From Candidatus Dadabacteria bacterium (lineage in GTDB: Bacteria > Desulfobacterota_D > UBA1144 > Nemesobacterales > CSP1-2), in assembly GCA_963805855.1 (NCBI GenBank), contig CAWDVW010000005.1, positions 416,001 through 480,000 of the forward strand: DNA of 64,000 bases, read 5' to 3'. Under the pieces are notes generated by a model, which was not told the origin of the DNA, ran no database searches, and saw only the letters and a list, made by a program, of their open reading frames with translations. Made by a program: the position numbers and the translations under genes. Position 1 is the stretch's first letter. The number at the start of each line of letters is the position of its first letter. Shown one piece after another: positions 2,388 to 32,013 of the stretch.

Positions 2388-4442
2388 ATGCCCCGAAAAC
2401 AAAGCCTGGAACAACTTATTATCAACACAATAAGAACACTATCAATGGACGCTGTTCAAAAAGCAAATTCAGGCCACCCCGGGACGCCGATGGCAATGGC
2501 CCCAGTGGCGTATACGGTCTGGGATAAATTCATCCATCATAATCCCAGGAACCCAGACTGGCCCAATCGAGACCGTTTCGTGCTCTCCGCTGGACATGCT
2601 TGCATGCTATTATATAGTATCTTCCATATATCCGGATATGACGTCTCACTAAACGACATCAAGACTTTTCGTCAACTAGGAAGTAAATGCGCCGGGCATC
2701 CTGAATACGGACTGATACGCGGAATTGAAACAACAACCGGACCGCTCGGTCAGGGCGTAGCCACCAGTGTGGGAATGGCTATAGCTGAAAAATGGCTTGG
2801 CACCTATTTTAACCGTCCAGGACATGAAATCATAAACTATAATATTTTCGCCCTTGCCGGAGATGGATGTATGATGGAGGGAATTTCTAGTGAGGCCGCT
2901 TCTCTTGCCGGGCACCTGGGTCTCAACAACCTGATTTGGATTTACGATAATAACCATATAACCATCGAGGGGCATACGGCATTGGCGTTTACGGAGGACG
3001 TGGCCGCCAGATTCATGGGTTATAACTGGCATGTTCAAAGAGTCGGCGATGCCAATAATCTTGAACTGCTTGAGGAATCGTTTCAGAGAGCGGTTGACGA
3101 AGCAGACCGACCGTCCTTAATCATTGTAGACAGCCATATTGGTTATGGTAGCCCGAACAAACAGGATACATCCGCGGCTCATGGTGAGCCGCTGGGCGAA
3201 GAAGAAATACGTAAGACGAAAATCAATTATGGTTGGGATCCCAATAAGAAGTTTTACGTTCCTGAAGAAGTAAAGGCTTATCGTACTACAGTCATCGAGA
3301 AAGGTGAAAGGGTTGAGGAAGAGTGGAAACTGAAGTTTTCGAGGTATGAATTTGAATACCCTGACCTGGCAGAGCAATTCAAACTGATCCAAAGTCGTGA
3401 GATGCCACCCGGTTGGGACTCATGCCTTCCAAAATTTTCCCCTGACCCTAAAGGTCCAGCTACCCGGGTATCAAATGGCAAAATTTTAAACACAATCGCG
3501 ACGAATATACCATGGTTCATGGGTGGAGCCGCCGACGTGGGACCATCAACAAAGACTTACATAGATAATGCGAGTAGTTTCGAAAGGAATGTCTACAGTG
3601 GAAGGAACTTTCATTTTGGAGTTCGGGAGAACGCGATGGCCGCAGTAGCAAATGGCATGGTTCTCAGTAAACTTCGAACCTATGTCGCTTGCTACTTTGT
3701 TTTCTCAGACTACATGCGAGCCCCACTCAGACTCTCCTGCTTGATGCAACAGCCGGTCATTTTTGTCTTTACACATGATAGCATAGCGTTAGGTGAAGAC
3801 GGTCCAACTCATCAGCCAATTGAACACTTGGCTTCCCTAAGGGCTATTCCAAATATGGAAGTAATCAGGCCAGCTGATGCAAATGAACTAAGTGCCCTCT
3901 GGAAGTATATAATGGCGGTAAAAAATCATCCAGTTGCTTTAATACTAACGCGGCAGGGTGTGCCGACATTTGACCGATCTAAGTACGCCCCGGCGGAAGG
4001 TGCCTTACGCGGTGCTTATATTATTGCACACACTAGAGGAAAACCCGACATAATAATGATAAGCACTGGGTCAGAGGTTCAGTTATGTCTTGAAGCCCAT
4101 CAGAGATTAAAAAGTCAGGGAATCAAATCGCGAGTTGTCAGCATGCCTTCTATGAATCTATTCGAGACACAAGACGCTGAATACAGGGAGGAGGTTTTGC
4201 CTAGTTCAATACGAGCTCGTCTGGCAGTTGAAGCGGGATCCACATTCGGCTGGGGTAGGTATACAGGGATCAGGAACCTTGACGGTGGTGTAATAGGTAT
4301 GAGGGATTTCGGCGACTCTGCCCCTGTACATGATTTGTTGAAAGAATTTGGACTGACGTCAGATCACGTTGTTGCTGAAGCCAAGAGGATATTAAATAAA
4401 CATAGGAAGAAAGCCCATAGGCAGATTAAAAAACGAGCATGA
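2388..4442 (+). CDS. tkt: Transketolase
   Basis: ANSGHPG, NRDRFVLSAGH, GDG..MEG ThDP motif, THDSIALGEDGPTHQP. Confidence 0.97.
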   Translation: MPRKQSLEQLIINTIRTLSMDAVQKANSGHPGTPMAMAPVAYTVWDKFIHHNPRNPDWPNRDRFVLSAGHACMLLYSIFHISGYDVSLNDIKTFRQLGSKCAGHPEYGLIRGIETTTGPLGQGVATSVGMAIAEKWLGTYFNRPGHEIINYNIFALAGDGCMMEGISSEAASLAGHLGLNNLIWIYDNNHITIEGHTALAFTEDVAARFMGYNWHVQRVGDANNLELLEESFQRAVDEADRPSLIIVDSHIGYGSPNKQDTSAAHGEPLGEEEIRKTKINYGWDPNKKFYVPEEVKAYRTTVIEKGERVEEEWKLKFSRYEFEYPDLAEQFKLIQSREMPPGWDSCLPKFSPDPKGPATRVSNGKILNTIATNIPWFMGGAADVGPSTKTYIDNASSFERNVYSGRNFHFGVRENAMAAVANGMVLSKLRTYVACYFVFSDYMRAPLRLSCLMQQPVIFVFTHDSIALGEDGPTHQPIEHLASLRAIPNMEVIRPADANELSALWKYIMAVKNHPVALILTRQGVPTFDRSKYAPAEGALRGAYIIAHTRGKPDIIMISTGSEVQLCLEAHQRLKSQGIKSRVVSMPSMNLFETQDAEYREEVLPSSIRARLAVEAGSTFGWGRYTGIRNLDGGVIGMRDFGDSAPVHDLLKEFGLTSDHVVAEAKRILNKHRKKAHRQIKKRA

Positions 4443-4510: not shown

Positions 4511-7339
4511 ATGTCGAAAATAAAGGAGTTAACCGACTTAGGTCAATCCATATGGTACGACTACATCCGTCGCTCGTTCATCACCTCGGGAGAGCTAAAA
4601 GCATTAATCGATGAGGGCCTCCTAGGAGAAACCTCAAATCCCTCGATTCTGGAAAAAGCAATCGCAGGCAGTTCCGACTATGACGGCGATATAAAAAGGC
4701 TTGTAAAAGAAAACAGGTCTGTCGAAGAGATTTATGAAGCGCTCGCGCTGGAAGATATTACGCTGGCTGCTGATCTATTTAGACCATCGTATGATTCTAC
4801 AAATGGCGCGGATGGGTTTATAAGCCTGGAAGTCAGTCCGACATTGGCCCATGATACTCAAAGCACGATCGCCGAGGCAAAAAGGTATCACAGATTGATA
4901 AATCGTCCAAATTTACTGATAAAGGTTCCGGCCACTCCGGAGGGTATACCAGCGATAACAGAATTAATAGGCTCGGGGATTAGCGTGAACGTTACCCTAA
5001 TGTTCAGTCTCGACCACTATAAGGCGGTTTCGGAGGCTTATATTAAAGGGCTAGAAAAATTAGCTTCGGACGGACCATCAGTTCCAGGCGGTCATAAGGT
5101 TGATAAGGTCGCGTCGGTGGCGTCATTTTTTGTAAGTCGCGTGGACACAGCCGTTGATCACGAATTGGAAAAGATCGGAAATACCCAGCTACAAGGTAAA
5201 ATAGCGATTGCTAATTCGAAAGCGACATACTTAGAATTTCAAAACACCTTCAGGGGTCCTCGATGGGAGAATCTAGCGTCAAAAGGAGCCAGAGTCCAAA
5301 GGGTATTGTGGGCGAGTACCAGCACCAAAAATCCTCTTTATCCCGATACCATGTATGTAGACGAGCTGATCGGGCCAAACACAGTTAATACAGTTCCACC
5401 TGTAACATACAAAAGCTTTCGAGACCATGGAACACCAAAAGTCACGATTACAGAGGGCGTCGATCACGCGATGTCCCAACTCTCCGAATTAAATAAGCTA
5501 GGTATAGATCTTAGCGCGGTAACGGCAAAATTGCAGGATGACGGCGTAGTAGCCTTTGCTAAATCATTTGAAACTCTCATGGCCAGCATCGAGGAGAAGA
5601 AAGATAGGCTGATTGCAAAGAAAAAAGGGTTTTCCGCAAGTCTAGGAAAACACCGGAAGGTCGTTACTGACGAGCTTAAAAGGATGGAGGACAATCATAT
5701 CAGCCAGCGAATCTGGAATTTTGACTTCTTCGTTTGGAAGGATGATCCCACCGAGATCAGTAATAGACTAGGTTGGCTGCACATTCCCGAGGTTATGATG
5801 GACGCCATACCTGGGATAAATTTCGTCGTGGATTCGGCCAGAGCGGATGGATACCGGTATGCCGTACTCCTTGGAATGGGCGGGTCAAGCTTGGCTCCGT
5901 ATGTTTTTCGGGAAACCTTTGGTGCAAAGAAAGACTATCTGGATCTATCAGTCCTCGACAGCACCGATCCTGGCGCCGTACTCGACAACAGAAACAGGGT
6001 TGAGCTCGATAAGACCCTCTTCATCGTCTCCACAAAGTCCGGAAGTACCAACGAAACCCTCTCATTCATGAGATATTTCTATAATGAGGTGTTGGACGTT
6101 GTTGGAGCAGAAAATGCCGGAAAACACTTCATAGCCATTACTGATCCCGGAAGTCCATTGGCGAAGACAGCAACTGAACTGAAATTTCGAAAGACATTTC
6201 TCAACGACCCCAATATTGGCGGCCGTTACTCTGTTCTATCTTATTTTGGCTTGGTCCCTGCAGCCTTAATCGGTATCGATTTAAATCTTCTGTTGGAAAG
6301 GTCAATCGCCATGCTCCACAACAATGAGAGCTGTAATTCACCGATCGCGGGAAATAATTCGGGTGCATGGTTAGGGACGAGCATGGGAATTCTTGCCAAC
6401 CTGGGTCGAGATAAAACGACACTGGTTGCTTCTCCACCCATTTCGCACATTGGAACATGGGTAGAGCAGCTGATTGCGGAGAGCACTGGTAAAGAGGGAA
6501 AGGGAATTTTACCGGTGGACGGGGAGGAATTACTACCCCCTGAATTTTACGGAAATGATCGCTTATTTGTCTACATGAGATTGGAAGATGATGCTACTTA
6601 CGATGATAAGGTGAAAGCACTTGAAGATGCGGGACAGCCAGTCGTCCAATTAAATCTCAGAGATCTTTACGACCTAGGGGGAGAATTTTTCAGGTGGGAA
6701 ATGGCGATTGCCGTCGCCGGCATGCACCTTGGAATTAATCCGTTTAATCAACCAAATGTTGAGGCGGCAAAGGTTCTTGCCAGAAATATGGTCGCGGCCT
6801 ATCAAAAGGAAGGACGACTGCCGGAGATTGATGCGTCCTTAGTAGCAAATGGCTTGAAAGTGTATTCAGATTTTTCAACCGACAGTATAGAAGACGCTCT
6901 TCATAAATTTTTAGCGCTTGGAAATCCTGGTCAGAACGAGGGTAAAGGAAGGAGTTATGTTACGCTACAGGCTTATATAAAACCTTCGCCTGAACACGAT
7001 AAAGCGCTTCATACTTTACGTACCACAATTCAGAAAAAATACCGACTCGCAACAACTCAAGGCTACGGCCCTCGATTTTTGCATTCCACCGGTCAACTCC
7101 ACAAGGGAGATGCCGGCCATGGATTATTTATTCAGTTCTTGTCAGAAATGCCGCAAGACATTCCCGTACCTGATAAGCCTGGCGAGCCTGCCTCTTCAAT
7201 AACCTTTGGTATAATAAAGAACGCCGCTGCCCTTGGCGACCGTCAGGCGCTCAAGGACGTTGGCAGAAAGGTTATAACGTTTGATTTGGGTAGAGACATC
7301 GTCGGTGGTTTAACAAAGCTAAATGACAGCATAAAGTGA
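4511..7339 (+). CDS. tal-pgi: Bifunctional transaldolase / glucose-6-phosphate isomerase fusion
   Basis: N-terminal TSNPSI, LIKVPAT, LWASTSTK; C-terminal GMGGSSL, STKSGST, IGGRYS, QLIAESTGK, NPFNQPNVE. Confidence 0.95.
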   Translation: MSKIKELTDLGQSIWYDYIRRSFITSGELKALIDEGLLGETSNPSILEKAIAGSSDYDGDIKRLVKENRSVEEIYEALALEDITLAADLFRPSYDSTNGADGFISLEVSPTLAHDTQSTIAEAKRYHRLINRPNLLIKVPATPEGIPAITELIGSGISVNVTLMFSLDHYKAVSEAYIKGLEKLASDGPSVPGGHKVDKVASVASFFVSRVDTAVDHELEKIGNTQLQGKIAIANSKATYLEFQNTFRGPRWENLASKGARVQRVLWASTSTKNPLYPDTMYVDELIGPNTVNTVPPVTYKSFRDHGTPKVTITEGVDHAMSQLSELNKLGIDLSAVTAKLQDDGVVAFAKSFETLMASIEEKKDRLIAKKKGFSASLGKHRKVVTDELKRMEDNHISQRIWNFDFFVWKDDPTEISNRLGWLHIPEVMMDAIPGINFVVDSARADGYRYAVLLGMGGSSLAPYVFRETFGAKKDYLDLSVLDSTDPGAVLDNRNRVELDKTLFIVSTKSGSTNETLSFMRYFYNEVLDVVGAENAGKHFIAITDPGSPLAKTATELKFRKTFLNDPNIGGRYSVLSYFGLVPAALIGIDLNLLLERSIAMLHNNESCNSPIAGNNSGAWLGTSMGILANLGRDKTTLVASPPISHIGTWVEQLIAESTGKEGKGILPVDGEELLPPEFYGNDRLFVYMRLEDDATYDDKVKALEDAGQPVVQLNLRDLYDLGGEFFRWEMAIAVAGMHLGINPFNQPNVEAAKVLARNMVAAYQKEGRLPEIDASLVANGLKVYSDFSTDSIEDALHKFLALGNPGQNEGKGRSYVTLQAYIKPSPEHDKALHTLRTTIQKKYRLATTQGYGPRFLHSTGQLHKGDAGHGLFIQFLSEMPQDIPVPDKPGEPASSITFGIIKNAAALGDRQALKDVGRKVITFDLGRDIVGGLTKLNDSIK

Positions 7340-8091
7340 TTAAAGTTTTCATATTCGATCTCGATGGTACATTGGTGCAGACCGAAACTCTAAAGGCCAG
7401 GTCATACGCTAAAGCTGCGGTGGAACTGAAACCCACACTTAAAGAAGAGCAAATTATAGAGGCATTCAAAGATGTTGTGGGGCTTTCCCGAAAAGAGGTT
7501 TCCGAAGCCATAATGGAACGCTTTGGTTTACGAGAGATGGCTAGCGCCAAGATGACGGAATTTAACGTGCACAAACCTTGGCAGGCATTTGCGCAGATTA
7601 GAATGGGTATCTACGACTCTTTGATTTCAAACCCTGAGATTTTAAGCCAACACCTGTGCCCATATAATGTTGGTCTCTTAAAATGGGCAAGACAAAATGG
7701 ATACCCAACCGGCCTAGGCACGCAGTCTCATCGACCACAGACTCTACGCATCCTGGAAATCCTGAACATTCGGGACGAGTTCGACTTCATTGCTACCCGT
7801 GAAGATGTTGAAAATCCGAAGCCCGATCCGGAGATTTATCTACTGTTGGCGAATGAGTTACAGATCTCTCCTCCGGAAAGTCTTGTTATTGAAGACTCCG
7901 CCACTGGAGTTCAAGCCGCTCTTAGCGCGGGAATGAGGTGCATCGCAGTTACAACTGAGTTTACGAAAGAAGGTGTGCATAAGATGAACAACTTTGATGA
8001 GCGCTGGATTGTGGACTCCCCGCCAGAATTACTGGAAGTAGCAAAACGTTTTATTGCTGAAAACGCTGGGGGAGGGGAGAGGATCAGTTGA
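7336..8091 (+). CDS. HAD-superfamily phosphatase (beta-phosphoglucomutase-like)
   Basis: FDLDGTL, KPDPEIY, IEDS motifs; GTG start overlaps the tal-pgi stop. Confidence 0.88.
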   Translation: MIKVFIFDLDGTLVQTETLKARSYAKAAVELKPTLKEEQIIEAFKDVVGLSRKEVSEAIMERFGLREMASAKMTEFNVHKPWQAFAQIRMGIYDSLISNPEILSQHLCPYNVGLLKWARQNGYPTGLGTQSHRPQTLRILEILNIRDEFDFIATREDVENPKPDPEIYLLLANELQISPPESLVIEDSATGVQAALSAGMRCIAVTTEFTKEGVHKMNNFDERWIVDSPPELLEVAKRFIAENAGGGERIS

Positions 8092-8810
8092 GCGAAAACG
8101 CGAAGTCCGAACAACTAAAACTGCAGGATCGCCTTAAAAAGGAAGCGGGGCGGGCTGCCGTGGATTTTATCGAATCGAGTATGGTTTTGGGTCTTGGGAC
8201 AGGTTCTACAACCAGGTATGCATTAGAGGAGATTGGAAGAAGGATAAAGTCGGGAAAGTTAAAAGACATCGTTGGAATACCAAGTTCAATACAAACGGAG
8301 AAGATCGCGGGAGAATTAGGAATCAGCCTAACTACCTTCGATGAGTTCCAAGAATTAGATCTTACGATCGATGGGGCCGATGAGGTGGATCCTGAACTCA
8401 ACTTGATCAAGGGAGGAGGAGGTGCTTTGCTCAGGGAAAAGATTTTGGCTCAGGCAAGCAGACGCAATATTATGATTGTGGACGAGAGCAAGCTCTCCCC
8501 GCGGTTGGGAACCCACTGGCCCGTGCCAATTGAGGTGATCCCTTTTGCCTGGAAACTGGTAGAGAAGTTCCTCTTGTCATTAGGTGGAAAGGCTAGACTA
8601 CGAATGAAAGATGATGGCAATCCATATACTACGGATCAGAGCAACTTTATACTCGACACTAAATTTGGACCAATTGCTGATCTTGAGCGCCTCGCATCAA
8701 ATCTAAGCAAAAAGGCAGGTATAGTGGAATTTGGATTATTTCTGGGAACCGCATCCGAGGTAATCGTTGCTGGCGAGAACGGAATTCGCTTTTTAAGACG
8801 TAATGATTAA
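8088..8810 (+). CDS. rpiA: Ribose-5-phosphate isomerase A
   Basis: GLGTGST, DGADEVD, LIKGGGGALLREKI. Confidence 0.96.
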   Translation: MSENAKSEQLKLQDRLKKEAGRAAVDFIESSMVLGLGTGSTTRYALEEIGRRIKSGKLKDIVGIPSSIQTEKIAGELGISLTTFDEFQELDLTIDGADEVDPELNLIKGGGGALLREKILAQASRRNIMIVDESKLSPRLGTHWPVPIEVIPFAWKLVEKFLLSLGGKARLRMKDDGNPYTTDQSNFILDTKFGPIADLERLASNLSKKAGIVEFGLFLGTASEVIVAGENGIRFLRRND

Positions 8811-14939: not shown

Positions 14940-15716
14940 TCATATTTCCCGGGGTAAAATCAACGGCTCATTAGTAAGAATCTTCTCGGCGGCCTCGTAT
15001 GATTCGATTGTTCCAACATCCAATCTCTTGCCGTTCATCTTAATTGCGTATACAGGTTCCCGTTCAACTAGATAGGATATGAAATGTCCCGGAGCATCCC
15101 CAGCATCCGGTCGTGCCGCATATTCCTCTATGCAACCAAGAGCGGAGGTTTGTATAAAATATATAGGCGGACAGGCCCAGCCTGACCTAGCTTCTATAGG
15201 TTTTTCGCAAAAGCTTAACACGCGATTATCCGGTCCAACTTCAAGAACACCCTTTAGGTTTTTTCTACCGTGATTTATTTCATCTAAAGCTACCACAATA
15301 TTTTTCCCAGTCTTTATAAACGTCTGAGCAACAGGCTTTAATGAGAAGCGAAATATATTATCCCCTGCAGAAACTATAGCAGGCGCTATGGTTTTTAATG
15401 ATTTCACCGCAAGCGCCAAATCTTTAGTAGCTCCAAGACGATTCTCATTACTAGTAGCTCCATCATTATAGAGATGTATATCGATATCATATTCTCTCGA
15501 AATCTTTTTCCACCTGGCTTGCCACTCAAGAAAATTCTTATAAAAGAGTCCATTAGTCACTACATGTATCGACTCCATTTCGGGTAATACCAGCAATTGG
15601 TCCATTAAGTAGTCGAGAACAGGCCTGCCGCCAACCTTTAGCAACGGCTTAGGAAAATTCTTCGTGAGAGGATACATTCGTGTGGCAAATCCAGCGCAGA
15701 GCAGTATAGCTATCAT
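14940..15716 (-). CDS. Sugar-1-phosphate nucleotidyltransferase (NTP_transferase family)
   Basis: LLCAGFATRMYPLT..PKPLL, NDG...ENRLGA, EKP, DVG; start overlaps the kinase stop. Confidence 0.88.
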   Translation of the reverse strand: MIAILLCAGFATRMYPLTKNFPKPLLKVGGRPVLDYLMDQLLVLPEMESIHVVTNGLFYKNFLEWQARWKKISREYDIDIHLYNDGATSNENRLGATKDLALAVKSLKTIAPAIVSAGDNIFRFSLKPVAQTFIKTGKNIVVALDEINHGRKNLKGVLEVGPDNRVLSFCEKPIEARSGWACPPIYFIQTSALGCIEEYAARPDAGDAPGHFISYLVEREPVYAIKMNGKRLDVGTIESYEAAEKILTNEPLILPREI

Positions 15717-16936
15717 AAGAATCTAATCTCTTCATCGGATTTCACTCTATAAACCGCTGCTTTCCCCTTTGCTTCAGGGAGGCTACTCAGATAGTTCTCT
15801 AATAATTTGGATGAATCTTCATCCGAAAATTCAGGTGTCACGAAACCCATAACACACCCACCATAACCACCACCGCAGAACCTGCTGCCGTAAACTCCAT
15901 TAGTCTCGCTAAATATTCTTTGTAATTTAATGAGCGCAGGACTACCGCTCTCGTAATTCTCAATTGAACTATTACAGGACTCATTCATCAAACGGCCAAA
16001 ATTTACCCAATTCCCGTGGCGCCAACACATAAAACCATCTTCCACAGATCTAACCTCAGAAAAATAGTGGTCAGCCCTCTTCGTTAAATTTTCGGGCAAT
16101 GCGGCTCGATATCGTCTATATACCTCTTCCGGTATGTCAGATAGCGTATTTGCCGGTTCGATTCCCGCCAACTCGCCCAACAACGTCGAAGCTTTCTTGC
16201 ACTCCTCGACACGGGTATTGAAACCACTTGATGTTAGTTCCCTGCTAAATCCAGAATTAACAATTATGATCCTAAAGTCATCACTGTTATTTGGTCTTTC
16301 TACTGATTTTACCTCCGCATTAAGCGTGTTTATATAGAGTAAATGATCTTTCCTTCCATTAAGAATCGTTGCCTGGTCAAGTATCCCGTTTTGCAAGCCT
16401 AGGTATTCGTTTTCAAGCCTCCGATCCAACTGAATAAAGTCATGGTTCGAGAAGTCCAGTTCGTTTACCCTTGCAAGGGCATAAAGATATGACAAACCAA
16501 CCGAAGCAGAAGAACTCAAGCCACTCGAGGGCAGGGTCCCGTTTACAGCGCCCACAAATCCGCGGGAAAGAGTGTTTACGTCCCCGAGTACTTTCGTCGC
16601 TCCTCGAGCATATCTTCCCCAATCACCAATATCAGCCGGAAAGACCTTCTGAAGATCAAATTCCACTACACCCGGATAATTCATGCTGTGCAACCGCACT
16701 TTTGGAGCGACAACCGGTATGAAAGCAAGAACCGTATAGGCTTCTATCGTCATTCCTAATACCGGCCCGCCCTGATGGTCAATATGTGCTCCCAGAGGAC
16801 AAACTCGGTAAGGAGAAACTATAAAGTTGAGATTTCTTTCAGAAATCCTCTCGCGTCGCTGAAGAAATGATATCAGTTCCTCTTTAAGTTTATAAATAGG
16901 CTTAAATTCTTTAATCACCTTTAATATGATCTGCAA
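15713..16936 (-). CDS. GHMP sugar kinase, galacturonokinase-like (galactokinase family)
   Basis: PYRVCPLGAHIDHQGG, SSGLSSSA, ENEYLGLQNGILDQ, GSRFCGGGYGG; exact start uncertain. Confidence 0.85.
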   Translation of the reverse strand: MQIILKVIKEFKPIYKLKEELISFLQRRERISERNLNFIVSPYRVCPLGAHIDHQGGPVLGMTIEAYTVLAFIPVVAPKVRLHSMNYPGVVEFDLQKVFPADIGDWGRYARGATKVLGDVNTLSRGFVGAVNGTLPSSGLSSSASVGLSYLYALARVNELDFSNHDFIQLDRRLENEYLGLQNGILDQATILNGRKDHLLYINTLNAEVKSVERPNNSDDFRIIIVNSGFSRELTSSGFNTRVEECKKASTLLGELAGIEPANTLSDIPEEVYRRYRAALPENLTKRADHYFSEVRSVEDGFMCWRHGNWVNFGRLMNESCNSSIENYESGSPALIKLQRIFSETNGVYGSRFCGGGYGGCVMGFVTPEFSDEDSSKLLENYLSSLPEAKGKAAVYRVKSDEEIRFL

Positions 16937-17021
16937 AAATAGAACGGGATCTTTAGCGTTTATTAATAATTCATAGACCTACGATCAAATCTTTTACATG
17001 ATTTTTATATCCTTCACTATT

Positions 17022-17049
17022 GTAGGGAACGCATATATGCGTTCCCTAC
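17022..17049. repeat. GTAG-type REP-like perfect 28-bp palindrome
   Basis: GTAGGGAACGCATA|TATGCGTTCCCTAC. Confidence 0.7.
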
Positions 17050-17134
17050 TTTGTAACCACAAGCCACTACGGCAAAAGAATTTCCCCTACAATCACTCCT
17101 CTTATTAGGAGGATGAAGGTCTGGCGAATGAATT

Positions 17135-19216
17135 TTATTCCGCGACAGCAGAAATTCTTTGAATCTCATTTTGAAGCTGGTATAGATTAAAATAAATTCC
17201 TTCCCTTTTTAATAATTCATCGTGAGTACCAACCTCATAGATCTCACCTTTATGGATGACGATAATCTTGTCTGCATCTCTGACATTAGAGAGCCTATGA
17301 GCAATAATTAAAGTTGTTCGCTTTTTCGACCCTTTTTTAATTTCATCTCGCACCCTCGATTCTATTTGAGCATCTATATGAGAAGTAGCTTCATCGAGTA
17401 TCAAGAAATTGACATCTTTATTAAAAGCGTGGCCAATTGAAACGAGCTGTCTCTCTCCGGAAGAAATAAAACTACCGTCACTCTCTACAAGATCATCAAC
17501 CCCTGTAGCCCTTGCAAAATCATCTCCATTTCCAGAATGACCATCGGTCATAGTCCTCCCGAACAGAAATAGATCCTGAAAGACCGCAGATATATTTGCC
17601 CTCAAAAACTCCCGACTATACTCTCTTATATCCAACCCATCAAAAATGATCTGGCCTTTCTGTATGTCGTAAAACCGTAGGATTAAATTAACTATAGTGG
17701 TTTTTCCAGAGCCTGTCAGGCCAACAAGGGCGACAGTCTGCCCGGCACCCACTGTAAAAGAAACGTCTTTTAAAACCCACTCGCCTTCATCATATGCAAA
17801 CCAGACATTCCTAAATTCAAGCTCTCCGTTAACATTTTCCTCCCTTCTTCCTCTATCCCTTCCCTCAGGCTCAACTTTTGAAAGATCGTAAAGATTTTCC
17901 GATGCGGCAATTGCGGATTGAAAAATATTGTACCTCTCCGTGAGCTCCACGATTGGCCTAAAGAGCATTCTTACATAGTAAAGGTATGCGATAAGTGCCC
18001 CGAGAGTGAGGTCCAGGCTCAAAACGCTAAGACCCCCATACCAGAGTATTAAGGCTACGGAGAAAACACTAATAAATTCAATGACCGGCCTGAACGTAGC
18101 GAATGCCCATAACTGATCCATATTTGCTTCATAGTTCTTTCGATTCACATCCTTAAATCTTTCAAAGTTTTCCCCCTCTCTCCCATATAGTTTAATCAGC
18201 ACGATTCCTCTGACGCTTTCCTGAACAAACGCATTTAGCTGAGCGACCGTCTTTCTAACGTTTCTATAAACCATCTTGAGCCTCATTCTAAACAGGGCCC
18301 CGACAACTCCGACTACGATGGTAAGGCAAAGTATAAAGATGGTTAGATTCCTGTTCATATAAAACATCAAAATCAGCACCCCAAAAATTACCAAAACATC
18401 TTTAAGAAATTGAACCAGCACAGAGGTATACATCTCGTTTATCGCGTCTACATCATTCGTAACACGGGTTGACAACCTGCCTACAGGGTTATTGTCAAAG
18501 AATGTCTGAGGAAGGGATAGGATATGCGAAAACACCCCTACCCTGATGTTATGCATGATTTTTTGCCCTGAGTAATTGAGAAAGTATGTATATAATGAAC
18601 TGAAAAGGAAAACGCCAAAAAGACTCATTAAAAGAATTGTTGCAAGCCTTTTTACTCCGCTAATTTCCTCGCTTCTTAATATACCAACCTCAGATCTGCT
18701 CAATTTGTTAAGGGACGAATAGCCGACGATAAAAGATTTACCAAGAGGGCTAATCACATCGGGGTGATCTTCGATAATTTCGTGTATTTTCCTCATCCTG
18801 TCTGTACTAACCTTTGCCGGGTCAATAACCAAGTATCTTTCTTCCGAGACCATCCCAAGCTTCTCTAGATTATTCTTTTCTGCCGTATTGACTGCGGAGA
18901 GATCGATTAAATATCTATCTTCATCCAGTTTGATTATCGAAGTAGGGTATTTCTCTTTTAGCTGTTTTTCGAATTTGCTATCTTGCTCCTGATCCGAAAA
19001 GGTTGCCTCCCTCCAGGATGGGAAAATGAATGCATCCACTGCGATCTTGGTTAAATATGGTATGAGAAGCTCAAGTCCGGCGGTGATGATCATAAAAACC
19101 AATGAGAAAAGAAATAACCGCTTAAAAGGCTTAGCAAAGCCAAATAGCCACCGGATCAACTTTAGGTCATAGGTAACCTTTGCTCGCTTTTCCTCTTCCT
19201 GTTTCATTAACGCCAA
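17135..19216 (-). CDS. ABC exporter permease/ATPase (MdlB-like half of a heterodimer)
   Basis: TMD plus NBD; GLTGSGKT, LILDEATS, IAHRLS; degenerate signature ISSGERQ. Confidence 0.9.
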   Translation of the reverse strand: MALMKQEEEKRAKVTYDLKLIRWLFGFAKPFKRLFLFSLVFMIITAGLELLIPYLTKIAVDAFIFPSWREATFSDQEQDSKFEKQLKEKYPTSIIKLDEDRYLIDLSAVNTAEKNNLEKLGMVSEERYLVIDPAKVSTDRMRKIHEIIEDHPDVISPLGKSFIVGYSSLNKLSRSEVGILRSEEISGVKRLATILLMSLFGVFLFSSLYTYFLNYSGQKIMHNIRVGVFSHILSLPQTFFDNNPVGRLSTRVTNDVDAINEMYTSVLVQFLKDVLVIFGVLILMFYMNRNLTIFILCLTIVVGVVGALFRMRLKMVYRNVRKTVAQLNAFVQESVRGIVLIKLYGREGENFERFKDVNRKNYEANMDQLWAFATFRPVIEFISVFSVALILWYGGLSVLSLDLTLGALIAYLYYVRMLFRPIVELTERYNIFQSAIAASENLYDLSKVEPEGRDRGRREENVNGELEFRNVWFAYDEGEWVLKDVSFTVGAGQTVALVGLTGSGKTTIVNLILRFYDIQKGQIIFDGLDIREYSREFLRANISAVFQDLFLFGRTMTDGHSGNGDDFARATGVDDLVESDGSFISSGERQLVSIGHAFNKDVNFLILDEATSHIDAQIESRVRDEIKKGSKKRTTLIIAHRLSNVRDADKIIVIHKGEIYEVGTHDELLKREGIYFNLYQLQNEIQRISAVAE

Positions 19217-26000: not shown

Positions 26001-26111
26001 AGCTTACCTCCTGAGGTTTTAGGTTCTCGGATTCATGAGTGCCGAATAGCAATCAATTATACCTCAAATCCCTCAATACTCATCTTGTAAAAAGCCCAAT
26101 TTCAACTAAAT

Positions 26112-26190
26112 AGACAAAATGAAGGAATTGGCTAAATCGACCCAGACTTGCTAGGTTTATTGAAAAGGTACAATGTTAAGCAATGATCCC
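26112..26190 (+). repeat. ~80-bp repeat ending AAGCAATGAYCC, copy 1
   Basis: Core AAAAGGTACAATGTTAAGCAATGATCCC (26163-26190); similar to 27815-27894 and 29144-29224. Confidence 0.75.
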
Positions 26191-26207
26191 GTGATCTTCG
26201 TCAAAAC

Positions 26208-27386
26208 CTATTTGGGCTGCCCACTCTTTTCCGCTATGAACACGTCACGCTTGGGGAAACTTTCGAACAACTCTGGTGGTTGAGCAAAGTTAGTGGCGAG
26301 AACGTCGGCGGGATTGCCCGCAATCCATTGCGACAAATCGATCGTCGCATAGATGCCAGTGTTGAAGCCGATGAGAATGCGCGCGTTGTTTTCCCCAACG
26401 TTCTCAATCGAGTGCCCATATCCCTGCGGGATGTACCCGACGTCTCCCTTCTCCAGTTGCTCGATCCGATACCGGCCGTGGGAACCGAACAGGGTCACGC
26501 TTATCTGACCCTCGATGACATACTGCCACTCGTCAGCAGTCGGATGCCAGTGTAACTCGCGTAAGGCTCCGGGATCGAGATCGAGGACAACTCCAGTGAT
26601 CGTCCTGGAGATGGGGAATTGCGTCGAATCGACACGCCAATCGCGGCCGCCCTTGAACACGCCACGCGGTGGCTGGGCGAGGAGCCGGTACTTGTGCGTC
26701 TGCGGTGGTTTCTTCCGGCCCTGGAGCGGCGGCGCGGGTGCCTCGGGAGGAACAGGCCCACGGGCAAAGTAGACCTCTTCTTTGGGGATTGTGTCGAACG
26801 CCGCCTCGGGCAGGCCGAAGTTTTTCGCCAAGAGTGCCTTGGGTGTGTGGCCAATCCAGTCGGTGATGCTAAAAGTCCCGAATTCGGAGAAATAGCCGTT
26901 GTCGAAGATCAGGATGAAATGGCACGGCTGCTTGCCGAGGCACTGCAACATGTGGCCGTGACCGCGTGGAAAGTACCAAACGTCACCCGGATCGAAGTCG
27001 TCCGTCTCCGCGTAACCCTCCGGATCGATGACAGTTGTCCGCACACGCCCCGCGATGACGAAGGCCCATTCGGCTGCCGTGGCGTGCCAGTGAAGCTCGC
27101 GCATTACCCCAGGCTCGAGCCGCATGGAGACTCCTGCGATCCCCTTGGAAATCGGCAATTGTGTGACGGTTGCCTCCTTCCCATAGCTCTTACCGATGAC
27201 CTTGCCTTCGGACTTCTCGAGGGCAAATTTAAACGTCGGGAGTTCCTTACCGGACAGGATGGGATCTGGGACATTGTTCATGAAACTCGGATCTCCAGCT
27301 ACTGCCGGCAATGACCCTCTCCCCACAGTCTGAGCCGCGAGGCCCGTGCTCCCTGCTGGAAACTCTTGATGTTGCGAATCCGCCAT
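26208..27386 (-). CDS. Oxalate decarboxylase family Mn-bicupin
   Basis: Two RELHWH..A.EW cupin motifs; WYFPRGHGH, YIPQGYGH; lid SEFGTF; GGAGG RBS before ATG at 27386. Confidence 0.88.
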   Translation of the reverse strand: MADSQHQEFPAGSTGLAAQTVGRGSLPAVAGDPSFMNNVPDPILSGKELPTFKFALEKSEGKVIGKSYGKEATVTQLPISKGIAGVSMRLEPGVMRELHWHATAAEWAFVIAGRVRTTVIDPEGYAETDDFDPGDVWYFPRGHGHMLQCLGKQPCHFILIFDNGYFSEFGTFSITDWIGHTPKALLAKNFGLPEAAFDTIPKEEVYFARGPVPPEAPAPPLQGRKKPPQTHKYRLLAQPPRGVFKGGRDWRVDSTQFPISRTITGVVLDLDPGALRELHWHPTADEWQYVIEGQISVTLFGSHGRYRIEQLEKGDVGYIPQGYGHSIENVGENNARILIGFNTGIYATIDLSQWIAGNPADVLATNFAQPPELFESFPKRDVFIAEKSGQPK

Positions 27387-27433
27387 GTTGCCTCCTAGAT
27401 ATGTGCCATCGATAGTCGCCCCCAATTCTCTTC

Positions 27434-27458
27434 GGCCGAACTATAAATTAGACGGCAC
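27434..27458 (-). other. Putative integron attI simple site
   Basis: Minus strand GTCTAAT-ttata-GTTCGGC (L box, 5-bp spacer, GTT core) between the divergent intI fragment and the first cargo gene. Confidence 0.5.
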
Positions 27459-27564
27459 AGATTTACACTGAAATTCTTGCTGTTTAATCACCTCAACTGG
27501 GTATCCTAGACAGCAGAAACTTAGATGATTAACAGGGAAACCAATTTAAGCTAAACAGAGTAAT

Positions 27565-27834
27565 ATGTCAAGAATCACCGTGAATCCCTCGAACACGGAA
27601 AATAAGCCCAAGAAGCTCCTTGACCAAGCCCGGGGTGCAATACAGCTCAACCACTATTCCGGCCGCACCGGCGAGAGTTACGGTCAGTGGAGTAGGCGAT
27701 ATATCTTCGTTCATAATAAACGTCACCGAAAGAATATGGGTAACGCGGAGACCGAGCCATTTCCGACACACCTTACCATCAAAAAGCAGGTGTCTGCCTC
27801 TACTCAAAATCCAGAGAGAAATTTAAGGAATTGA
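27565..27834 (+). pseudogene. intI: Integron integrase N-terminal fragment (decayed, truncated)
   Basis: KKLLDQ.R..I...HYS.RT..SY..W.RRYI..HNKRH...MG..E...F.THL.....VSASTQN; no catalytic domain follows. Confidence 0.85.
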
Positions 27835-27894
27835 CCAAACGCTTGCAAAATTACTAAAATTGTTGAAAAAGGTACAAAGTCAAGCAATGACCCC
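27815..27894 (+). repeat. ~80-bp repeat, copy 2 (begins where intI homology ends)
   Basis: Core AAAAGGTACAAAGTCAAGCAATGACCCC (27867-27894). Confidence 0.75.
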
Positions 27895-27910
27895 TTTATT
27901 TTGTCACGCA

Positions 27911-28936
27911 CTAGCGAAACGCCGGAATTACTTTTCTCGCGAACAGCTCCAGGTGCGGCTGCACCCAGCTCGCCGGGAGACCCGGCGGGACCGTAAAGGA
28001 GTAATAGTGAGTCAGCGGCACTTCTTTTACATACGCGCGAATCATCTCTATACAGGTATCGACATCCACCACGTTAAACAAGCCCAGCTCCCGGAGGTGC
28101 TCCGCATCACGGATATGGGGTAGTAACGGCATCCCCGCCTTTTCAAACCACGCCGCATAACCGTTCAGCTGATAGAGTATGTGCTCCACGGCTTCGTGCC
28201 ATGTCTTCTCGGGATCGTGTGAAGCGATCAGCCAAAAGTACCCCCCGCCAATCGTGAGATTGCTCGTCGGCTTGCCCAGGTTCTCTAATTCAGCTATGTA
28301 GTGGTCGTAGAGTTCTTTAATAGGTCCGGTCCCCACAAACCCGTCCCCGTATTTCGCGGCGCGCCGAACCGCGGCTGGGCTGAACCCTCCGACCAGCAGG
28401 GGCGGCCGGGGTTTCTGGACGGGCTCCGGGGCGAGTTTGGCGTTATTGACCTCGTAATATTTCCCTTTGTAGGTGAGCGTCTCGCCTTCCCAAAGACGAC
28501 GGATGATTTCCAGCCCTTCATCGCTGCGCCCGCCCCGCTCTTTTCTGGGAATTCCGAAGCTCTCGAACTCCTCCACCTTGTAGCCGTTCCCTACTCCGAG
28601 CTGGAAGCGGCCTTCAGAGAGTATGTCGATTGTTGCGCCGTCCTCCGCCACCCGGATAGGATTATGAAGGGGTAAAAGCATGACGGCCGTACCGATGCGG
28701 ATTGTCCTGGTTCGCGCTGCGATAGCCGCCGCGATCGGTAACACCGACGATGAGAAACCGTCCTCGTGGAAGTGGTGTTCCTGGAGCCAGACATCCTCGA
28801 AGCCGTTACGCTCTGCCCAGACGATCTGGTCCAGTGTTTCACCATATATATCCGTATAGGGACGTCTCCACTGAGGAGGATTGCGAAAGTCATACCACAA
28901 ACCGAACCGCAGACGAGCGTTTGTATCCATGTTCAT
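27911..28936 (-). CDS. LLM-class flavin-dependent oxidoreductase
   Basis: WLQEHHF, IRIGTAV.LLPLHNP.RVAED..T.D.LS.GRF.LGVG, PVQKPRPP. Confidence 0.9.
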   Translation of the reverse strand: MNMDTNARLRFGLWYDFRNPPQWRRPYTDIYGETLDQIVWAERNGFEDVWLQEHHFHEDGFSSSVLPIAAAIAARTRTIRIGTAVMLLPLHNPIRVAEDGATIDILSEGRFQLGVGNGYKVEEFESFGIPRKERGGRSDEGLEIIRRLWEGETLTYKGKYYEVNNAKLAPEPVQKPRPPLLVGGFSPAAVRRAAKYGDGFVGTGPIKELYDHYIAELENLGKPTSNLTIGGGYFWLIASHDPEKTWHEAVEHILYQLNGYAAWFEKAGMPLLPHIRDAEHLRELGLFNVVDVDTCIEMIRAYVKEVPLTHYYSFTVPPGLPASWVQPHLELFARKVIPAFR

Positions 28937-29143
28937 ACCCCCAAATAGTTTTGGCCCTCGATGTTTAACCCAGTTCGGGCGTGAATGTTTCCTATCCCCA
29001 TTATTTCACAGGGGATAAACTTTTTCAAACATAATCTGTTTTGCTGCTACGCGCAGGCATGACAAGCATAATGAATAATTCGCAATTCCATACCGAAACT
29101 AATCTTTTATAATCGGTGACACATCCCGACCCTCAGGATAAAG

Positions 29144-29224
29144 GGAGAAATTGAAATAACTGATCAAATCGATCCAACCTTGTTTTAATTGTATTCAAAA
29201 AGTACAAAGCCAAGCAATGACCCG
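29144..29224 (+). repeat. ~80-bp repeat, copy 3
   Basis: Core AAAAAGTACAAAGCCAAGCAATGACCCG (29197-29224). Confidence 0.75.
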
Positions 29225-29237
29225 ATAATCATTCAAT

Positions 29238-29663
29238 TTAGGTCAGCTGGGCCTTGAGGCCGTCGAAGTCAAACCAGAGGTTCTCCTTTGCGATAAGCCC
29301 ATCCCGCAGCTCGAAGACGTGCAGAAGCCGTAGGCGCACCCTGCCGCTCTTACCGTCGAGTTTGAAGGGACGGCCATCCACCACGTCCCCGATCCAAATC
29401 GTCTCGTCGATGATGAAGTTGTCTCCGCCGAAGCGCATCACCGGCTCCACGCGCTCACCATTGACATCCGCGAACAGGCGCTCGTAAAAGCGACGAATCG
29501 CAGCTTTTCCGCGCAGCGGACCATCCGGCCCACCGACCACCTCGTGCTCGGCGTCGTCGGTGAAAGTTCGAAGCACGCCCTCAATGTCGTCGGTCGCCTC
29601 GTACATAAAGTGGTCATTTATGACCTTGTCCATCATTTCCCTGCTCATGGTTCCCACGTTCAT
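29238..29663 (-). CDS. SnoaL/NTF2-like protein (ester cyclase family)
   Basis: GGAGG RBS before ATG at 29663; HF.YE..DDIEG.L.T.TDD, LHVFE.RDG.I..E..W.D. Confidence 0.8.
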   Translation of the reverse strand: MNVGTMSREMMDKVINDHFMYEATDDIEGVLRTFTDDAEHEVVGGPDGPLRGKAAIRRFYERLFADVNGERVEPVMRFGGDNFIIDETIWIGDVVDGRPFKLDGKSGRVRLRLLHVFELRDGLIAKENLWFDFDGLKAQLT

Positions 29664-30027
29664 GACCTCCGCTCTTCTTTGATTGTTGAGAATTACCCGC
29701 GTTGGCACCCAAGTCGGCCCACCAGCCGGTATCCCGGCTTCGATTCCTTCCAGCGACTACTAACTACACTCCGAGAATGCAGTAAAATTCTCAGTTGGAG
29801 TTATGATAACACGAATCGCTGTTTTGCCCCAACATGCAACAAGTCTAATTACACATCAAGAGACGGAAAATGGAAGCCCCCAAAATACAAGATTCTTGTT
29901 CTGTTTCGCCAAGCTATGCGGCGAAAGCGTTGCTCTATTCGTACGGAACGGGCCATACCTTATGAATCAGGCTTACCTCTTTTTGGATAGGATCACCCTG
30001 TTGTCCCACTCGTTTGGGATCTGTGCT

Positions 30028-31129
30028 CTACTTCCTCACCACATACCAGTTGTTCTGGATGTCGTGATCAAGACGGTGCGTTTCGATAGAGCGAAAACCC
30101 GCCCGCTCCAGATACTCCCGCGTTCTTTCTTCTCCCCACATCGCCCCCAACCCTTCACCGCCTTGCGCGAGGGAAACTGTCATGCAGTGCATGCAGGAGA
30201 CCGTATAAAGGAGTGTCCCGATTGGGTGCTCGATGTCCTTATGAATATGGCTCGTACCGCTGATGTCCTGCATCAGATACACACCGTCCGGTTTCAGAGC
30301 CCGGTAAATGCCCCGGAGAACGTTGAGTGGCTTGGCTTGGTCATGGATCGCATCAAAGGTCGCAACGAAATCGAAGGATTCGGCCTCGGCGGTCTCGTCG
30401 AAGTTGCTCAAATCCCTTGCGACGAACTCAATGTTGTTTAGCCCACGCCGTGCTGCCTCCGCTCTTGCGAATGCGATCGCCTCCTCCGAGAGATCCATTC
30501 CCACAAGTCGGCTCCTTGGATAAAGCTCGGCCACTCGCATCATGATCAGACCCCGACCACAACCAACATCAAGAACCCGCATGCCTTTCTGCAAGGACTC
30601 AGTCAAGCCCGGCACGAGCGGGAGGATGTGCGATTCCAGGGACGAAAGCACGGACTGGCCGCTATCCTCCGCCATCACTTCGTGAAACCGTGGGAATCTG
30701 GAATATGGGAACTCCTCCCCCCTTCCTGAAACATTCCACGATGTCATCCTCTACGCCGCCAAGCCCTGAAATATACTGCGTAAATACCGCAATGTTGTCC
30801 GCACCCGCCGACCGGGTGAGAAACGCCGCGTGTTCCGCTGGCAACAGGAACCTGCCGGTGTTCGGATCGATCTCCACCACTCGCCCGGTGACCATGGCTC
30901 CAAGCCACTCACGCACGTAGCGCTCGTTAAGGCCTGAAGCACGTGCGATTTCCTCGGAGGTGCTCGGCGGCAATGTGCTCATGACATCGAAAAGCCCGGT
31001 GCGATGGCCTAAAGAAACCATTAGACAAAGGGCACCATTGTTGAGCACAGTTAGTAATTTGTCGGCGAATCCCTCTGCCTTCGCCTGATCGAATTTGGAA
31101 TCTGCGTCTGTCTTTGACACGGTTCTCAT
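30028..31129 (-). pseudogene. wHTH + class I SAM methyltransferase (Rv2258c-like) with one apparent +1 frameshift near 30707 (possibly a sequencing error)
   Basis: LNERYVREWL in the 5' frame; VLDVGCGRG, FDAIHDQ, SCMHCMTVSLAQGG in the 3' frame; frames join at KGGGVP/YSRF. Confidence 0.85.
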
Positions 31130-31158
31130 ACCTCCATAGTTGCTGTATTGCTTTTCCC

Positions 31159-31182
31159 GCCTAACGCCGGATTTCAGCCGTC
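31159..31182 (-). other. 3' half of an attC-like site
   Basis: Minus strand ..CGGCTGAAATCCGGC-GTTAGGC, 30 bp upstream of the methyltransferase ATG; no RYYYAAC partner found. Confidence 0.45.
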
Positions 31183-31253
31183 GCTTCGACGAGCTGTCGA
31201 TTTCAAACTAACAATGAGCCGACCACCACTTAATATTACAAAATCACCACAGC

Positions 31254-31616
31254 TCATTCATTGATCCATCGCAATGCGTCCTCGCGTTTGCTTGAAGAGA
31301 AACTCCTTATCTCGCCGCTAATCGCCAATGTAGCGATTTTCAATCCCCACTCGACCCATTTTGGCCCGCCAATTACACCCATCTTTTCAAAATCGTTTCT
31401 GTGTGTGAGTCCAAAACGAGAGTCATCCCATAATGCTGCAGCCTCCCAACCATGGAATTCATCACCCATATCCAGCAGAAGCCGCGCCTTGCCGTGTTCG
31501 CGGATAATCGATTCCAAGCGTGGAATAAGTACATCCTTATAGTCCCCGTCTGTCAATTTGCCCACAGCGCCAAGTATAAGAATATTCCCCTTGCTTTCCG
31601 GTGACACCTTAATCAT
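31254..31616 (-). CDS. STAS/SEC14 (SpoIIAA-like) domain protein
   Basis: GKLTDGDY...IP, F.GW...A.WDD..FG..H..DFEK.GVIG..W, A..W. Confidence 0.85.
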   Translation of the reverse strand: MIKVSPESKGNILILGAVGKLTDGDYKDVLIPRLESIIREHGKARLLLDMGDEFHGWEAAALWDDSRFGLTHRNDFEKMGVIGGPKWVEWGLKIATLAISGEIRSFSSSKREDALRWINE

Positions 31617-32013
31617 GGGATTCTCGGTTCAGGTCGCGCGTTGAATTACGCGAATGTTCGCAACCACTTTAAATTATACCGTGTGAAATCGGAAACAGTT
31701 AAACAATAATCACTCGAATGAAACTTCGCATAAACACCCCAATATCTGGTGTTATGAGAACAATTGTCACCCTTATGTTTGTAAGGGAGTATACTTAAAA
31801 ATGTTCCGTTGAGGCAAAATCTACGAGACGAAATGCAATGACAGACCGGGTGTGGGCTCCCGCTAAAGCCCGTACTCCAGTGTCACCCGATCAACGCATT
31901 CGAGTGCAGGATTGATCGGGTAATTAGGTGGAATGACACACCCAAAACGGAATAGCGCAGGGAAATTGTTGCCTGACAGCTTTTTCCTAATTCTGCATCG
32001 TACTTGAATCATG

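Follow-up and report, generated by a model that had tools for sequence, protein, structure and literature searches.

What does a bacterium do with a sugar kinase that has the fold of a galactokinase, lacks the galactokinase signature, and is encoded by a gene overlapping one for a nucleotidyltransferase? The question is raised by a locus of an uncultured Candidatus Dadabacteria bacterium from sediment (GenBank assembly GCA_963805855.1) in a 64,000-nucleotide stretch of contig CAWDVW010000005.1, positions 416,001 to 480,000, which we call the window and in which coordinates are counted unless another locus is named. The initial annotation had described the two genes as a plant-type galacturonokinase-like kinase translationally coupled to a nucleotidyltransferase. 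We found that the kinase, P0001, belongs to a large, mostly bacterial family in which proteins named as plant galacturonokinase (GalAK) are nested, and that a transferase like its partner, P0002, or of another kind, is encoded directly downstream of most of the related kinase genes that we collected. With moderate confidence, we read the pair as a two-step salvage system in which a free hexuronic acid would be converted to its 1-phosphate and then to a nucleoside diphosphate (NDP)-uronate.

Family and active site of the kinase

The pair and its motifs are arranged as follows.
15713 to 16936, minus strand: gene for P0001, a GHMP sugar-1-kinase of the GalAK clade; 407 amino acids, starting at TTG 16936 or GTG 16918
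14940 to 15716, minus strand: gene for P0002, a sugar-1-phosphate nucleotidyltransferase; 258 amino acids, PF00483
15713 to 15716, minus strand: 4-bp ATGA overlap of kinase stop and transferase start; the junction reads TTC TTA TGA, with the P0002 ATG inside
16766 to 16813, minus strand: motif I, PYRVCPLGAHIDHQGG, P0001 residues 42–57; sugar-binding signature with A50, H54, and Q55
16496 to 16531, minus strand: motif II, PSSGLSSSASVG, P0001 residues 136–147; phosphate-binding loop
16373 to 16414, minus strand: ENEYLGLQNGILDQ, P0001 residues 175–188; contains D187, the counterpart of the galactokinase catalytic Asp
15944 to 15970, minus strand: SSIENYESG, P0001 residues 323–331; G331 in this family, T/S in galactokinase
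15854 to 15874, minus strand: motif III, GGGYGGC, P0001 residues 355–361; subclade-specific G356, Y358, and G359
15663 to 15701, minus strand: N-terminal nucleotide-binding loop of P0002, LCAGFATRMYPLT, residues 6–18; A8, G9, T12, R13, P16, and T18 invariant

Translation recovered at these positions all three kinase motifs that the initial annotation had singled out (motif I, the D187 segment, and SSIENYE.G), and the 4-bp overlap with the next gene was as it had reported. The alternative GTG start lies six codons beyond the TTG; most homologs are 399 residues long and align from about residues 8–10. P0001 matched GHMP_kinases_N (PF00288), GHMP_kinases_C (PF08544), and GalKase_gal_bdg (PF10509) with 41.6, 29.2, and 35 bits, all above the respective gathering scores of 22.3, 21, and 23.1, and both its domains and its fold place it in the galactokinase-like branch of the GHMP superfamily. 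An AlphaFold2 (AF2) model built from 43 homologs had a predicted local distance difference test score (pLDDT) of 96, and this predicted structure matched the human, Pyrococcus, and Lactococcus lactis galactokinases with template modeling (TM) scores of 0.79–0.87 at 25–28% identity; in Foldseek, the modeled TM against human GALK1 was 0.87. The closest solved relative by sequence was the L. lactis galactokinase 1pie (E = 3e-37), and no structure in the PDB copy was closer than the galactokinases. All five NCBIfam galactokinase equivalog models scored P0001 below their cut-offs (193/385, 178.9/226.65, 168.3/443, 158.2/499, and 95.7/509 bits). Judged from its sequence, P0001 is no ordinary galactokinase.

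Alignment with 1pie located the divergence in the sugar site. P0001 has the galactokinase residues at R44, H51, D53, and D187, with R44 and D187 in the places of the catalytic Arg and Asp, and keeps motifs II and III; in the sugar site, Glu is exchanged for A50, Tyr for H54, Asn for Q55, and a further Tyr for F239. With canonical galactokinase (GalK; Escherichia coli b0757, L. lactis 1pie, and human GALK1) it thus has in common the fold (TM 0.85–0.87), both catalytic residues, and motifs II and III; it differs in its low identity (26–28%), a separate clade, and a partner that is a pyrophosphorylase-type transferase instead of GalT. The GalK signature G-R-x-N-L-I-G-E-H-x-D-Y-N is absent, GRVNLIGEHTDYN being replaced by YRVCPLGAHIDHQ; P0001 has Y43, C46, P47, A50, H54, and Q55 where GalK has G, N, L, E/D, Y, and N. 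The family as a whole shares these differences (with Y/L at 43 and C/S at 46) and adds W305 (L in GalK), G331 (T/S), and F353 (M/L); at all nine columns, P0001 and the Camellia sinensis protein introduced below are identical in type.

The Glu of the galactokinase signature contacts galactose O6. At P0001 columns 50, 54, and 55, E. coli GalK has E/Y/N and the plant galacturonokinase-named protein has A/H/Q, as does P0001, and the motif match to plant galacturonokinase made in the initial annotation stands. That annotation also linked the Glu-to-Ala exchange to uronic-acid specificity: the residues are as it stated, Ala in the plant galacturonokinase-named protein and Glu in GalK, and the link to specificity was reportedly drawn by Yang and colleagues in 2009. 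In a 43-sequence alignment, P42, R44, G49, H51, D53, H54, Q55, and G57 of motif I were invariant, as were G139 and S143 of motif II, with S141, S142, and A144 nearly so; the combination A/C50-H54-Q55 was present in 201 of 218 aligned homologs. By this conservation, motif I is a family-defining signature and no chance string.

A word-indexed search with P0001 gave 2675 matches among 8000 candidates scored. The best 120 belonged to bins of uncultured bacteria such as Thermodesulfobacteriota and Dadabacteria; those with a name were "galacturonokinase," "galactokinase/galacturonokinase," or "galactokinase" in the annotation of the Joint Genome Institute (JGI) and "galactokinase family protein" in that of NCBI. 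A HMMER scan of 1.84 billion representatives returned 7680 kinase matches, 426 of them below 1e-30; among the best 150 were a C. sinensis galacturonokinase (AHC32019.1, P0177; 38–43% identical to P0001), a Tetracentron "Galacturonokinase" (P0189), and algal entries from Spirogloea (P0166) and Chara (P0230). The ESM Atlas offered only generic GHMP/galactokinase clusters. Four longer representatives that appeared to be fusions were discounted: P0206 (kinase N-part with NTP_transferase), P0219 (with part of a UDP-glucose dehydrogenase), P0196 (part of DctM with the kinase), and P0212 (with AAA_25). We regard them as run-on or chimeric gene calls because each joins a truncated kinase to a truncated partner.

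Two trees were computed by rapid LG+G4 searches in which only a few true galactokinases served as the outgroup, the plant rows being identified by their source names only. Tree 1 had 99 rows (P0001, GalK of E. coli K-12, HMMER-scan representatives of 355–440 residues, and Spirogloea, with fragments and fusions outside that length left out); tree 2 had 91, including 82 kinases complete in the loci fetched for the pairing analysis below. P0001 grouped with the plant galacturonokinase-named proteins and apart from GalK in both, in a clade of 94 of the 99 rows of tree 1 (Shimodaira–Hasegawa-like approximate likelihood ratio test, SH-aLRT, 99) and 85 of the 91 rows of tree 2 (100); outside it stood E. 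coli GalK and four GalK-like representatives in tree 1, with the same GalK split in tree 2. The label "plant-type" of the initial annotation is the wrong way round, because in tree 2 the plant sequences nest inside a large, mostly bacterial family: the plant and streptophyte-alga rows (P0177, P0189, and P0166) are sister (98) to four metagenome sequences (L048, L069, L060, and L064), a topology that hints at a bacterial derivation of the plant enzyme.

Within tree 2 we distinguished clade A (7 rows), clade B (30 rows, including the plants), and clade C (48 rows, SH-aLRT 96). Clade C splits into the single row L077, C1 (13 rows, 99), and C2 (34 rows, 97); within C2 lie the P0001 subclade, with 16 rows (99), and its sister, with 17. 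Columns 239, 356, 358, and 359 (P0001 numbering) sort by clade, as listed here in that order.
Clade B and plants: Y, A/G, F, R
Clade C1: Y, G, F, G
Clade C2, including P0001: F (in 14 of 18 sister-subclade rows), G, Y, G
From this pattern, the Tyr seems to have been relocated from column 239 to column 358 in C2. Columns 239 and 356 correspond to Arabidopsis sites where mutagenesis reportedly altered sugar choice in the 2009 work. Because the P0001 subclade differs from the plants at 239, 356, 358, and 359, galacturonic acid (GalA) cannot be transferred to P0001 with confidence.

The transferase and the conserved pair

P0002 scored 87.6 bits against PF00483 (cut-off 21.2) and fell below the NCBIfam equivalog cut-offs of RmlA (35/360.65), GalU (40.8/326.8), GlgC, MurU (38.3/250), HddC (35.6/300), and AglF, the last giving the best score (64.9/400). 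No UDPGP domain was found in it, Pfam returning only PF00483 and PF12804 at E ≤ 0.01. The AF2 model (pLDDT 92.6) had GalU and short RmlA types as its nearest predicted folds, with TM 0.73–0.81 at 19–23% identity. P0002 shares with these enzymes the fold, the G-x-x-T-R loop, K23, GDN, and EKP; beyond the low identity, it differs in a family-specific loop, CAGFATR, and an NDGAT-N-NRLGA region. Its homologs (n = 837), which JGI labels "glucose-1-phosphate thymidylyltransferase" and NCBI "nucleotidyltransferase family protein," have in common the N-terminal loop LCAGFATRMYPLT, FPKPLL, NDGAT-N-NRLGA, AGDNI, EKP, DAPG, and LDIG; the nucleotide loop, the Lys (K23), GDN, and EKP were kept across sets of 121 and 26 homologs. 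When long fusion proteins containing the transferase were sought, there were five matches (with an epimerase, NUDIX, a WecG-type glycosyltransferase, and a pyridoxal phosphate enzyme) and none with a kinase, a blank that is weak evidence.

The adjacency of kinase and nucleotidyltransferase genes proved to be both real and widely conserved. We fetched 18 loci from species genomes and the best 80 of 553 confirmed metagenome matches, and detected downstream transferases with a profile made from 20 neighboring transferases, requiring at least 300 bp of room beyond the kinase. A same-strand transferase gene lay directly downstream of the kinase in 59 of 72 loci; these counts are not independent because the loci are interrelated and were picked by likeness to P0001. 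Independently of the profile, Pfam placed PF00483 in the downstream open reading frame (ORF) at 43 of 63 scanned loci, and by tblastn coordinates the overlap geometry of the window, with transferase residue 1 at the base that ends kinase residue 407, recurred in 19 loci. At least three kinds of partner occur: that of P0002, one of about 240 residues that is 24–30% identical to P0002, and one of about 315 residues with a hexapeptide tail. Thirteen loci had no directly downstream transferase (L012, L018, L023, L025, L041, L044, L048, L050, L068, L069, L074, L099, and L098); these aside, the adjacency and shared orientation are those of a salvage cassette. In L098, an Xre-type antitoxin and RES-domain toxin pair (7230–8150, plus strand) is inserted between kinase and transferase. 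The kinase–transferase pair is general and common in uncultured bacteria, and the two-step reading of kinase followed by transferase is well supported by this pairing.

For hints to the substrate, we scanned two ORFs on each side of the kinase, using rough gene calls. The glucuronate isomerase UxaC adjoins the kinase in three loci (L027, L039, and L094), the tagaturonate epimerase UxaE in two (L024 and L025), and a gene for the binding protein DctP of tripartite ATP-independent periplasmic (TRAP) transport in two (L028 and L077). These cases belong to C1, apart from L077, which branches at the base of C, and L094, which is in B; L027 has a truncated kinase and is absent from the tree. Elsewhere, the neighbors included a GntR/FCD regulator (L053), GFO_IDH_MocA oxidoreductases, and a sugar ATP-binding cassette (ABC) binding protein. 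In L028, a second, distinct GHMP kinase gene (6813–7868, plus strand) follows the transferase. The UxaC/UxaE-linked C1 and the P0001 subclade both lie within clade C, and the transferases that tblastn picked up at 9 of the 13 C1 loci are 44–48% identical to P0002; the window pair and the C1 pairs therefore look like one unit. The sister subclade of P0001 has a different setting, in which YdjC, in some cases MFS_2, the kinase, a transferase of about 240 residues, and a BcrAD_BadFG ATPase follow one another, frequently accompanied by genes for an epimerase, PIG-L deacetylase, or DegT aminotransferase (L017, L049, L058, L066, L070, L073, L076, L082, L084, and L087).

Proposed uronate salvage and its alternatives

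Which sugar is phosphorylated, which nucleotide is added, and where the product goes are inferred in the following scheme. P0001 would transfer phosphate from ATP to the anomeric hydroxyl of a free hexuronic acid, either GalA or something closely related, like glucuronic acid (GlcA); P0002 would join the resulting sugar-acid 1-phosphate to a nucleoside triphosphate, probably UTP; and the NDP-uronic acid formed would enter glycan synthesis or further NDP-sugar conversions. A uronic acid is our best guess for the substrate of P0001 from motif I and the neighbors in related clades. The genome (3.1 Mb, nine contigs, 93.8% complete) contains P0001 as its sole galactokinase-family match, no canonical GalK, and eight PF00483 matches. 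It also encodes three full NDP-sugar dehydrogenases, each beside a gene resembling an epimerase of the short-chain dehydrogenase/reductase family; two match the UDP-glucose 6-dehydrogenase TuaD best and one the UDP-ManNAc/GlcNAc dehydrogenases. Because such dehydrogenases make NDP-uronic acids anyway, a use for the product of the pair exists. Near-identical DNA was found in salt-marsh, mangrove, marsh, and soil metagenomes.

The scheme has several known counterparts. An anomeric kinase followed by a PF00483-type transferase is the same two-step design as in AmgK-MurU (N-acetylmuramic acid), Fkp (fucose), and HddA-HddC (heptose), and AmgK is not a GHMP kinase; these systems differ in acting on other substrates, and P0002 was weak on the MurU and HddC models. 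Plant GalAK (Arabidopsis At3g10700, EC 2.7.1.44) is, judged through the Camellia protein, of the same GHMP subfamily and clade as P0001 and shares the A/H/Q of motif I; together with the UDP-sugar pyrophosphorylase USP/Sloppy, it follows the two-step logic proposed for the window pair. The second step differs, in that USP, a member of the UDPGP family, is replaced in the window by a PF00483 enzyme whose gene overlaps that of the kinase. The plant route runs from GalA through GalA-1-P to UDP-GalA (PMC8636097). The zebrafish protein DrGKUP, a glucuronokinase/putative UDP-GlcA pyrophosphorylase, resembles the pair in uniting a GHMP uronic-acid 1-kinase with a short bacterial-type nucleotidyltransferase for UDP-uronate salvage; it is one fused polypeptide with the transferase first, as opposed to the two genes of the window (PMC3938481). 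Glucuronokinase is stated to have almost no identity to GalA kinase and to be present in a few bacteria (PMC2823444). Pneumococcal RmlA is inactive on GalA-1-P (PMC9056299), and because this tested enzyme was inactive, use of a uronate by P0002 would need a specialized site.

A number of observations weigh against salvage of a hexuronic acid. The plant reference depends on source-given names and on Arabidopsis work known through citation, and literature searches, judged by title and abstract, found no characterized bacterial enzyme of the GalAK family, although subscription papers and further PMC items may hold more. The kinase does not carry the plant-type residues at the clade-sorting columns, having F239, G356, Y358, and G359 where the Camellia protein has Y263, A381, F383, and R384 (Y239, A356, F358, and R359 of plant GalAK in P0001 numbering). 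The neighbors of the sister subclade (YdjC, PIG-L, and BcrAD_BadFG) probably indicate a separate pathway for an N-acetylated sugar. In the genome itself, 93.8% complete as noted, UxaC, GH28, and DctP were not found, the de novo route to NDP-uronates renders salvage dispensable, and two GalT-family genes far from the kinase are compatible with a galactose role. Among 120 genomes sampled from the phylum, 40 have the kinase and 19 a P0002-type transferase, which is adjacent to the kinase in 18 of the 19; the other 22 kinase-bearing genomes have no P0002-type match, and no transferase-profile match lay within about 3 kb of the kinase in any of the 11 such genomes that were fetched. Finally, three kinase copies from one genus (L109, L110, and L111) are full length and lack Arg44, Asp53, the phosphate loop, Asp187, and motif III. 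The uronate salvage route put forward in the initial annotation thus keeps the support of hexuronate genes beside related clades, and meets resistance in the residues of its own subclade and in the gene content of its own genome.

The rival that fares best keeps the two-step chemistry and changes the sugar, to an N-acetyl-hexosaminuronic acid, an amino sugar, a pentose such as L-arabinose, or galactose. We consider this rather unlikely. It would account for the subclade-specific exchanges at 239, 356, 358, and 359; for the sister subclade amid YdjC, PIG-L, BcrAD_BadFG, MFS_2, and DegT, with its distantly related transferase; for the missing uronate genes; for the GalT-family genes in a genome without canonical GalK; and for the third dehydrogenase, of UDP-ManNAc/GlcNAc type. 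It is opposed by motif I, in which A50, H54, and Q55 are invariant from the plants to P0001, by the UxaC/UxaE linkage and shared transferase type of the nearest clade with informative neighbors, and by the failure of P0001 at every galactokinase cut-off.

Next comes the proposal, which we hold to be improbable, that the pair initiates breakdown, the NDP-uronate being epimerized or decarboxylated into central metabolism in a Leloir-like logic for sugar acids. Catabolic and uptake neighbors in other clades fit it (UxaC, UxaE, DctP, SBP_bac_1, GntR/FCD, GFO_IDH_MocA, a xylose-isomerase-like TIM barrel, and glycerate kinase), as does the pentose-phosphate cluster about 2.9 kb from the pair. We know of no NDP-uronate breakdown route of this kind, and no epimerase, decarboxylase, or uptake gene adjoins the pair in the window. 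Where UxaC or UxaE is present, the kinase more likely diverts part of the uronate pool to glycans, because the isomerase route already serves breakdown there.

The phylum also brings into view a second neighbor of the kinase, located upstream of it.
17135 to 19216, minus strand: gene for P0003, an ABC half-transporter of 693 amino acids
All 12 close genome loci and all 11 fetched transferase-less genomes (G074/L012 is in both sets) have an ABC gene immediately upstream of the kinase, which makes it the most constant neighbor of the kinase in the phylum. P0003 has an insert of about 125 residues (about 60–185) between membrane helices 1 and 2, for which no Pfam family was found and for which the ESM Atlas look-alikes were weak, below 0.9. 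In two scanned transferase-less loci, MarR and sigma-70 genes lie downstream of the kinase. The genus of L109–L111 comprises seven genomes with kinases at 32–39% identity, of which three copies were inspected, each at about 3001–4164 of its locus; they are still beside the ABC gene and have no transferase, and L110 lacks any Pfam match. From their sequences, these copies may be pseudoenzymes with a new role, and a kinase of another genus, L108, is partly degraded. In genome G008, where the kinase would be expected, with the ABC gene on one side and a P0002-type transferase on the other, there is an unrelated gene for GSDH, a glucose/sorbosone dehydrogenase of the pyrroloquinoline quinone type (L116, 2893–4056, plus strand), an arrangement that points to inherited order and not to function. 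The cassette is dispensable in this phylum and its gene order old, and the link between ABC gene and kinase may likewise be a matter of inheritance more than of function.

That the kinase-like protein is in this lineage mainly a noncatalytic ligand sensor (compare yeast Gal3p) for the ABC transporter or MarR, with the transferase incidental, is very improbable: the ABC linkage, tighter in the phylum than that of kinase and transferase, the retained dead copies, and the MarR gene that follows in many loci speak for it, but the window copy has all catalytic motifs and an overlapping transferase gene, the transferase is the constant partner outside the phylum, where the ABC gene is absent, and the G008 arrangement argues for inherited order.

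Returning to uronate salvage, we regard P0001–P0002 as a bacterial variation on a known salvage design, one that is unstudied and that automatic pipelines have already half named. If correct, this reading would give bacteria a direct way of turning free uronic acids into NDP-uronic acids, a salvage described to date in plants (GalAK or the glucuronokinase GlcAK, with USP) and fish (a fusion protein). Galacturonate and glucuronate set free from plant and algal polymers in marsh and soil would then have a further fate, a compact two-enzyme tool for UDP-GalA-type donors would be at hand, and the plant enzyme would trace back to bacteria. Tentatively, the argument might be carried further. GalAK-family uronate 1-kinases with their own transferase family could form a widespread NDP-uronate salvage of sediment and soil bacteria, of which the streptophyte GalAK is an offshoot; in the lineage of the window, the sugar pocket would have been rearranged (Tyr from 239 to 358), maybe for another sugar acid, the pair locked beside an unusual ABC transporter, and the kinase repeatedly reduced to a retained, kinase-dead protein. 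Such dead copies would be a natural case of an enzyme becoming something else.

Flanking genes and transcription signals sought

The remaining features of the surroundings are these.
17021 to 17052, no strand: perfect 28-base palindrome in the 198-bp gap between ABC gene and kinase; six copies in the genome
19297 to 19647, minus strand: DUF559 (endonuclease-like) gene between the two ABC half-transporter genes
4511 to 7339, plus strand: ORF of 942 amino acids joining transaldolase and phosphoglucose isomerase domains, within the pentose-phosphate cluster

The palindrome is a repeated element and possibly marks a transcript boundary; contigs from other metagenomes break or diverge at it, as they would at a repeat like the repetitive extragenic palindromic (REP) sequences. 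Promoter and terminator scans of the window gave scores at the level of shuffled sequence. Two 151-base contigs from an oligo-dT RNA library, with 95–99% likeness and lying inside the kinase gene (15872–16170), were considered as evidence of expression or co-transcription and dropped, because they come from a relative, may reflect DNA carry-over, and do not cross the kinase–transferase junction. Upstream of P0003, beyond the DUF559 gene, lies the second ABC half-transporter gene. On the other side, 280 bp downstream of P0002, an ORF assigned to no family (P0004) has an N-terminus that looks like a lipoprotein signal and is followed by a xanthine/uracil-type permease. The pentose-phosphate cluster is on the strand opposite to the pair and includes transketolase, HAD, RpiA, Rpe, G6PD, and 6-phosphogluconolactonase. 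Positions 26001–32000 of the window have a G+C fraction of 0.52–0.53, compared with about 0.42–0.46 in the rest.

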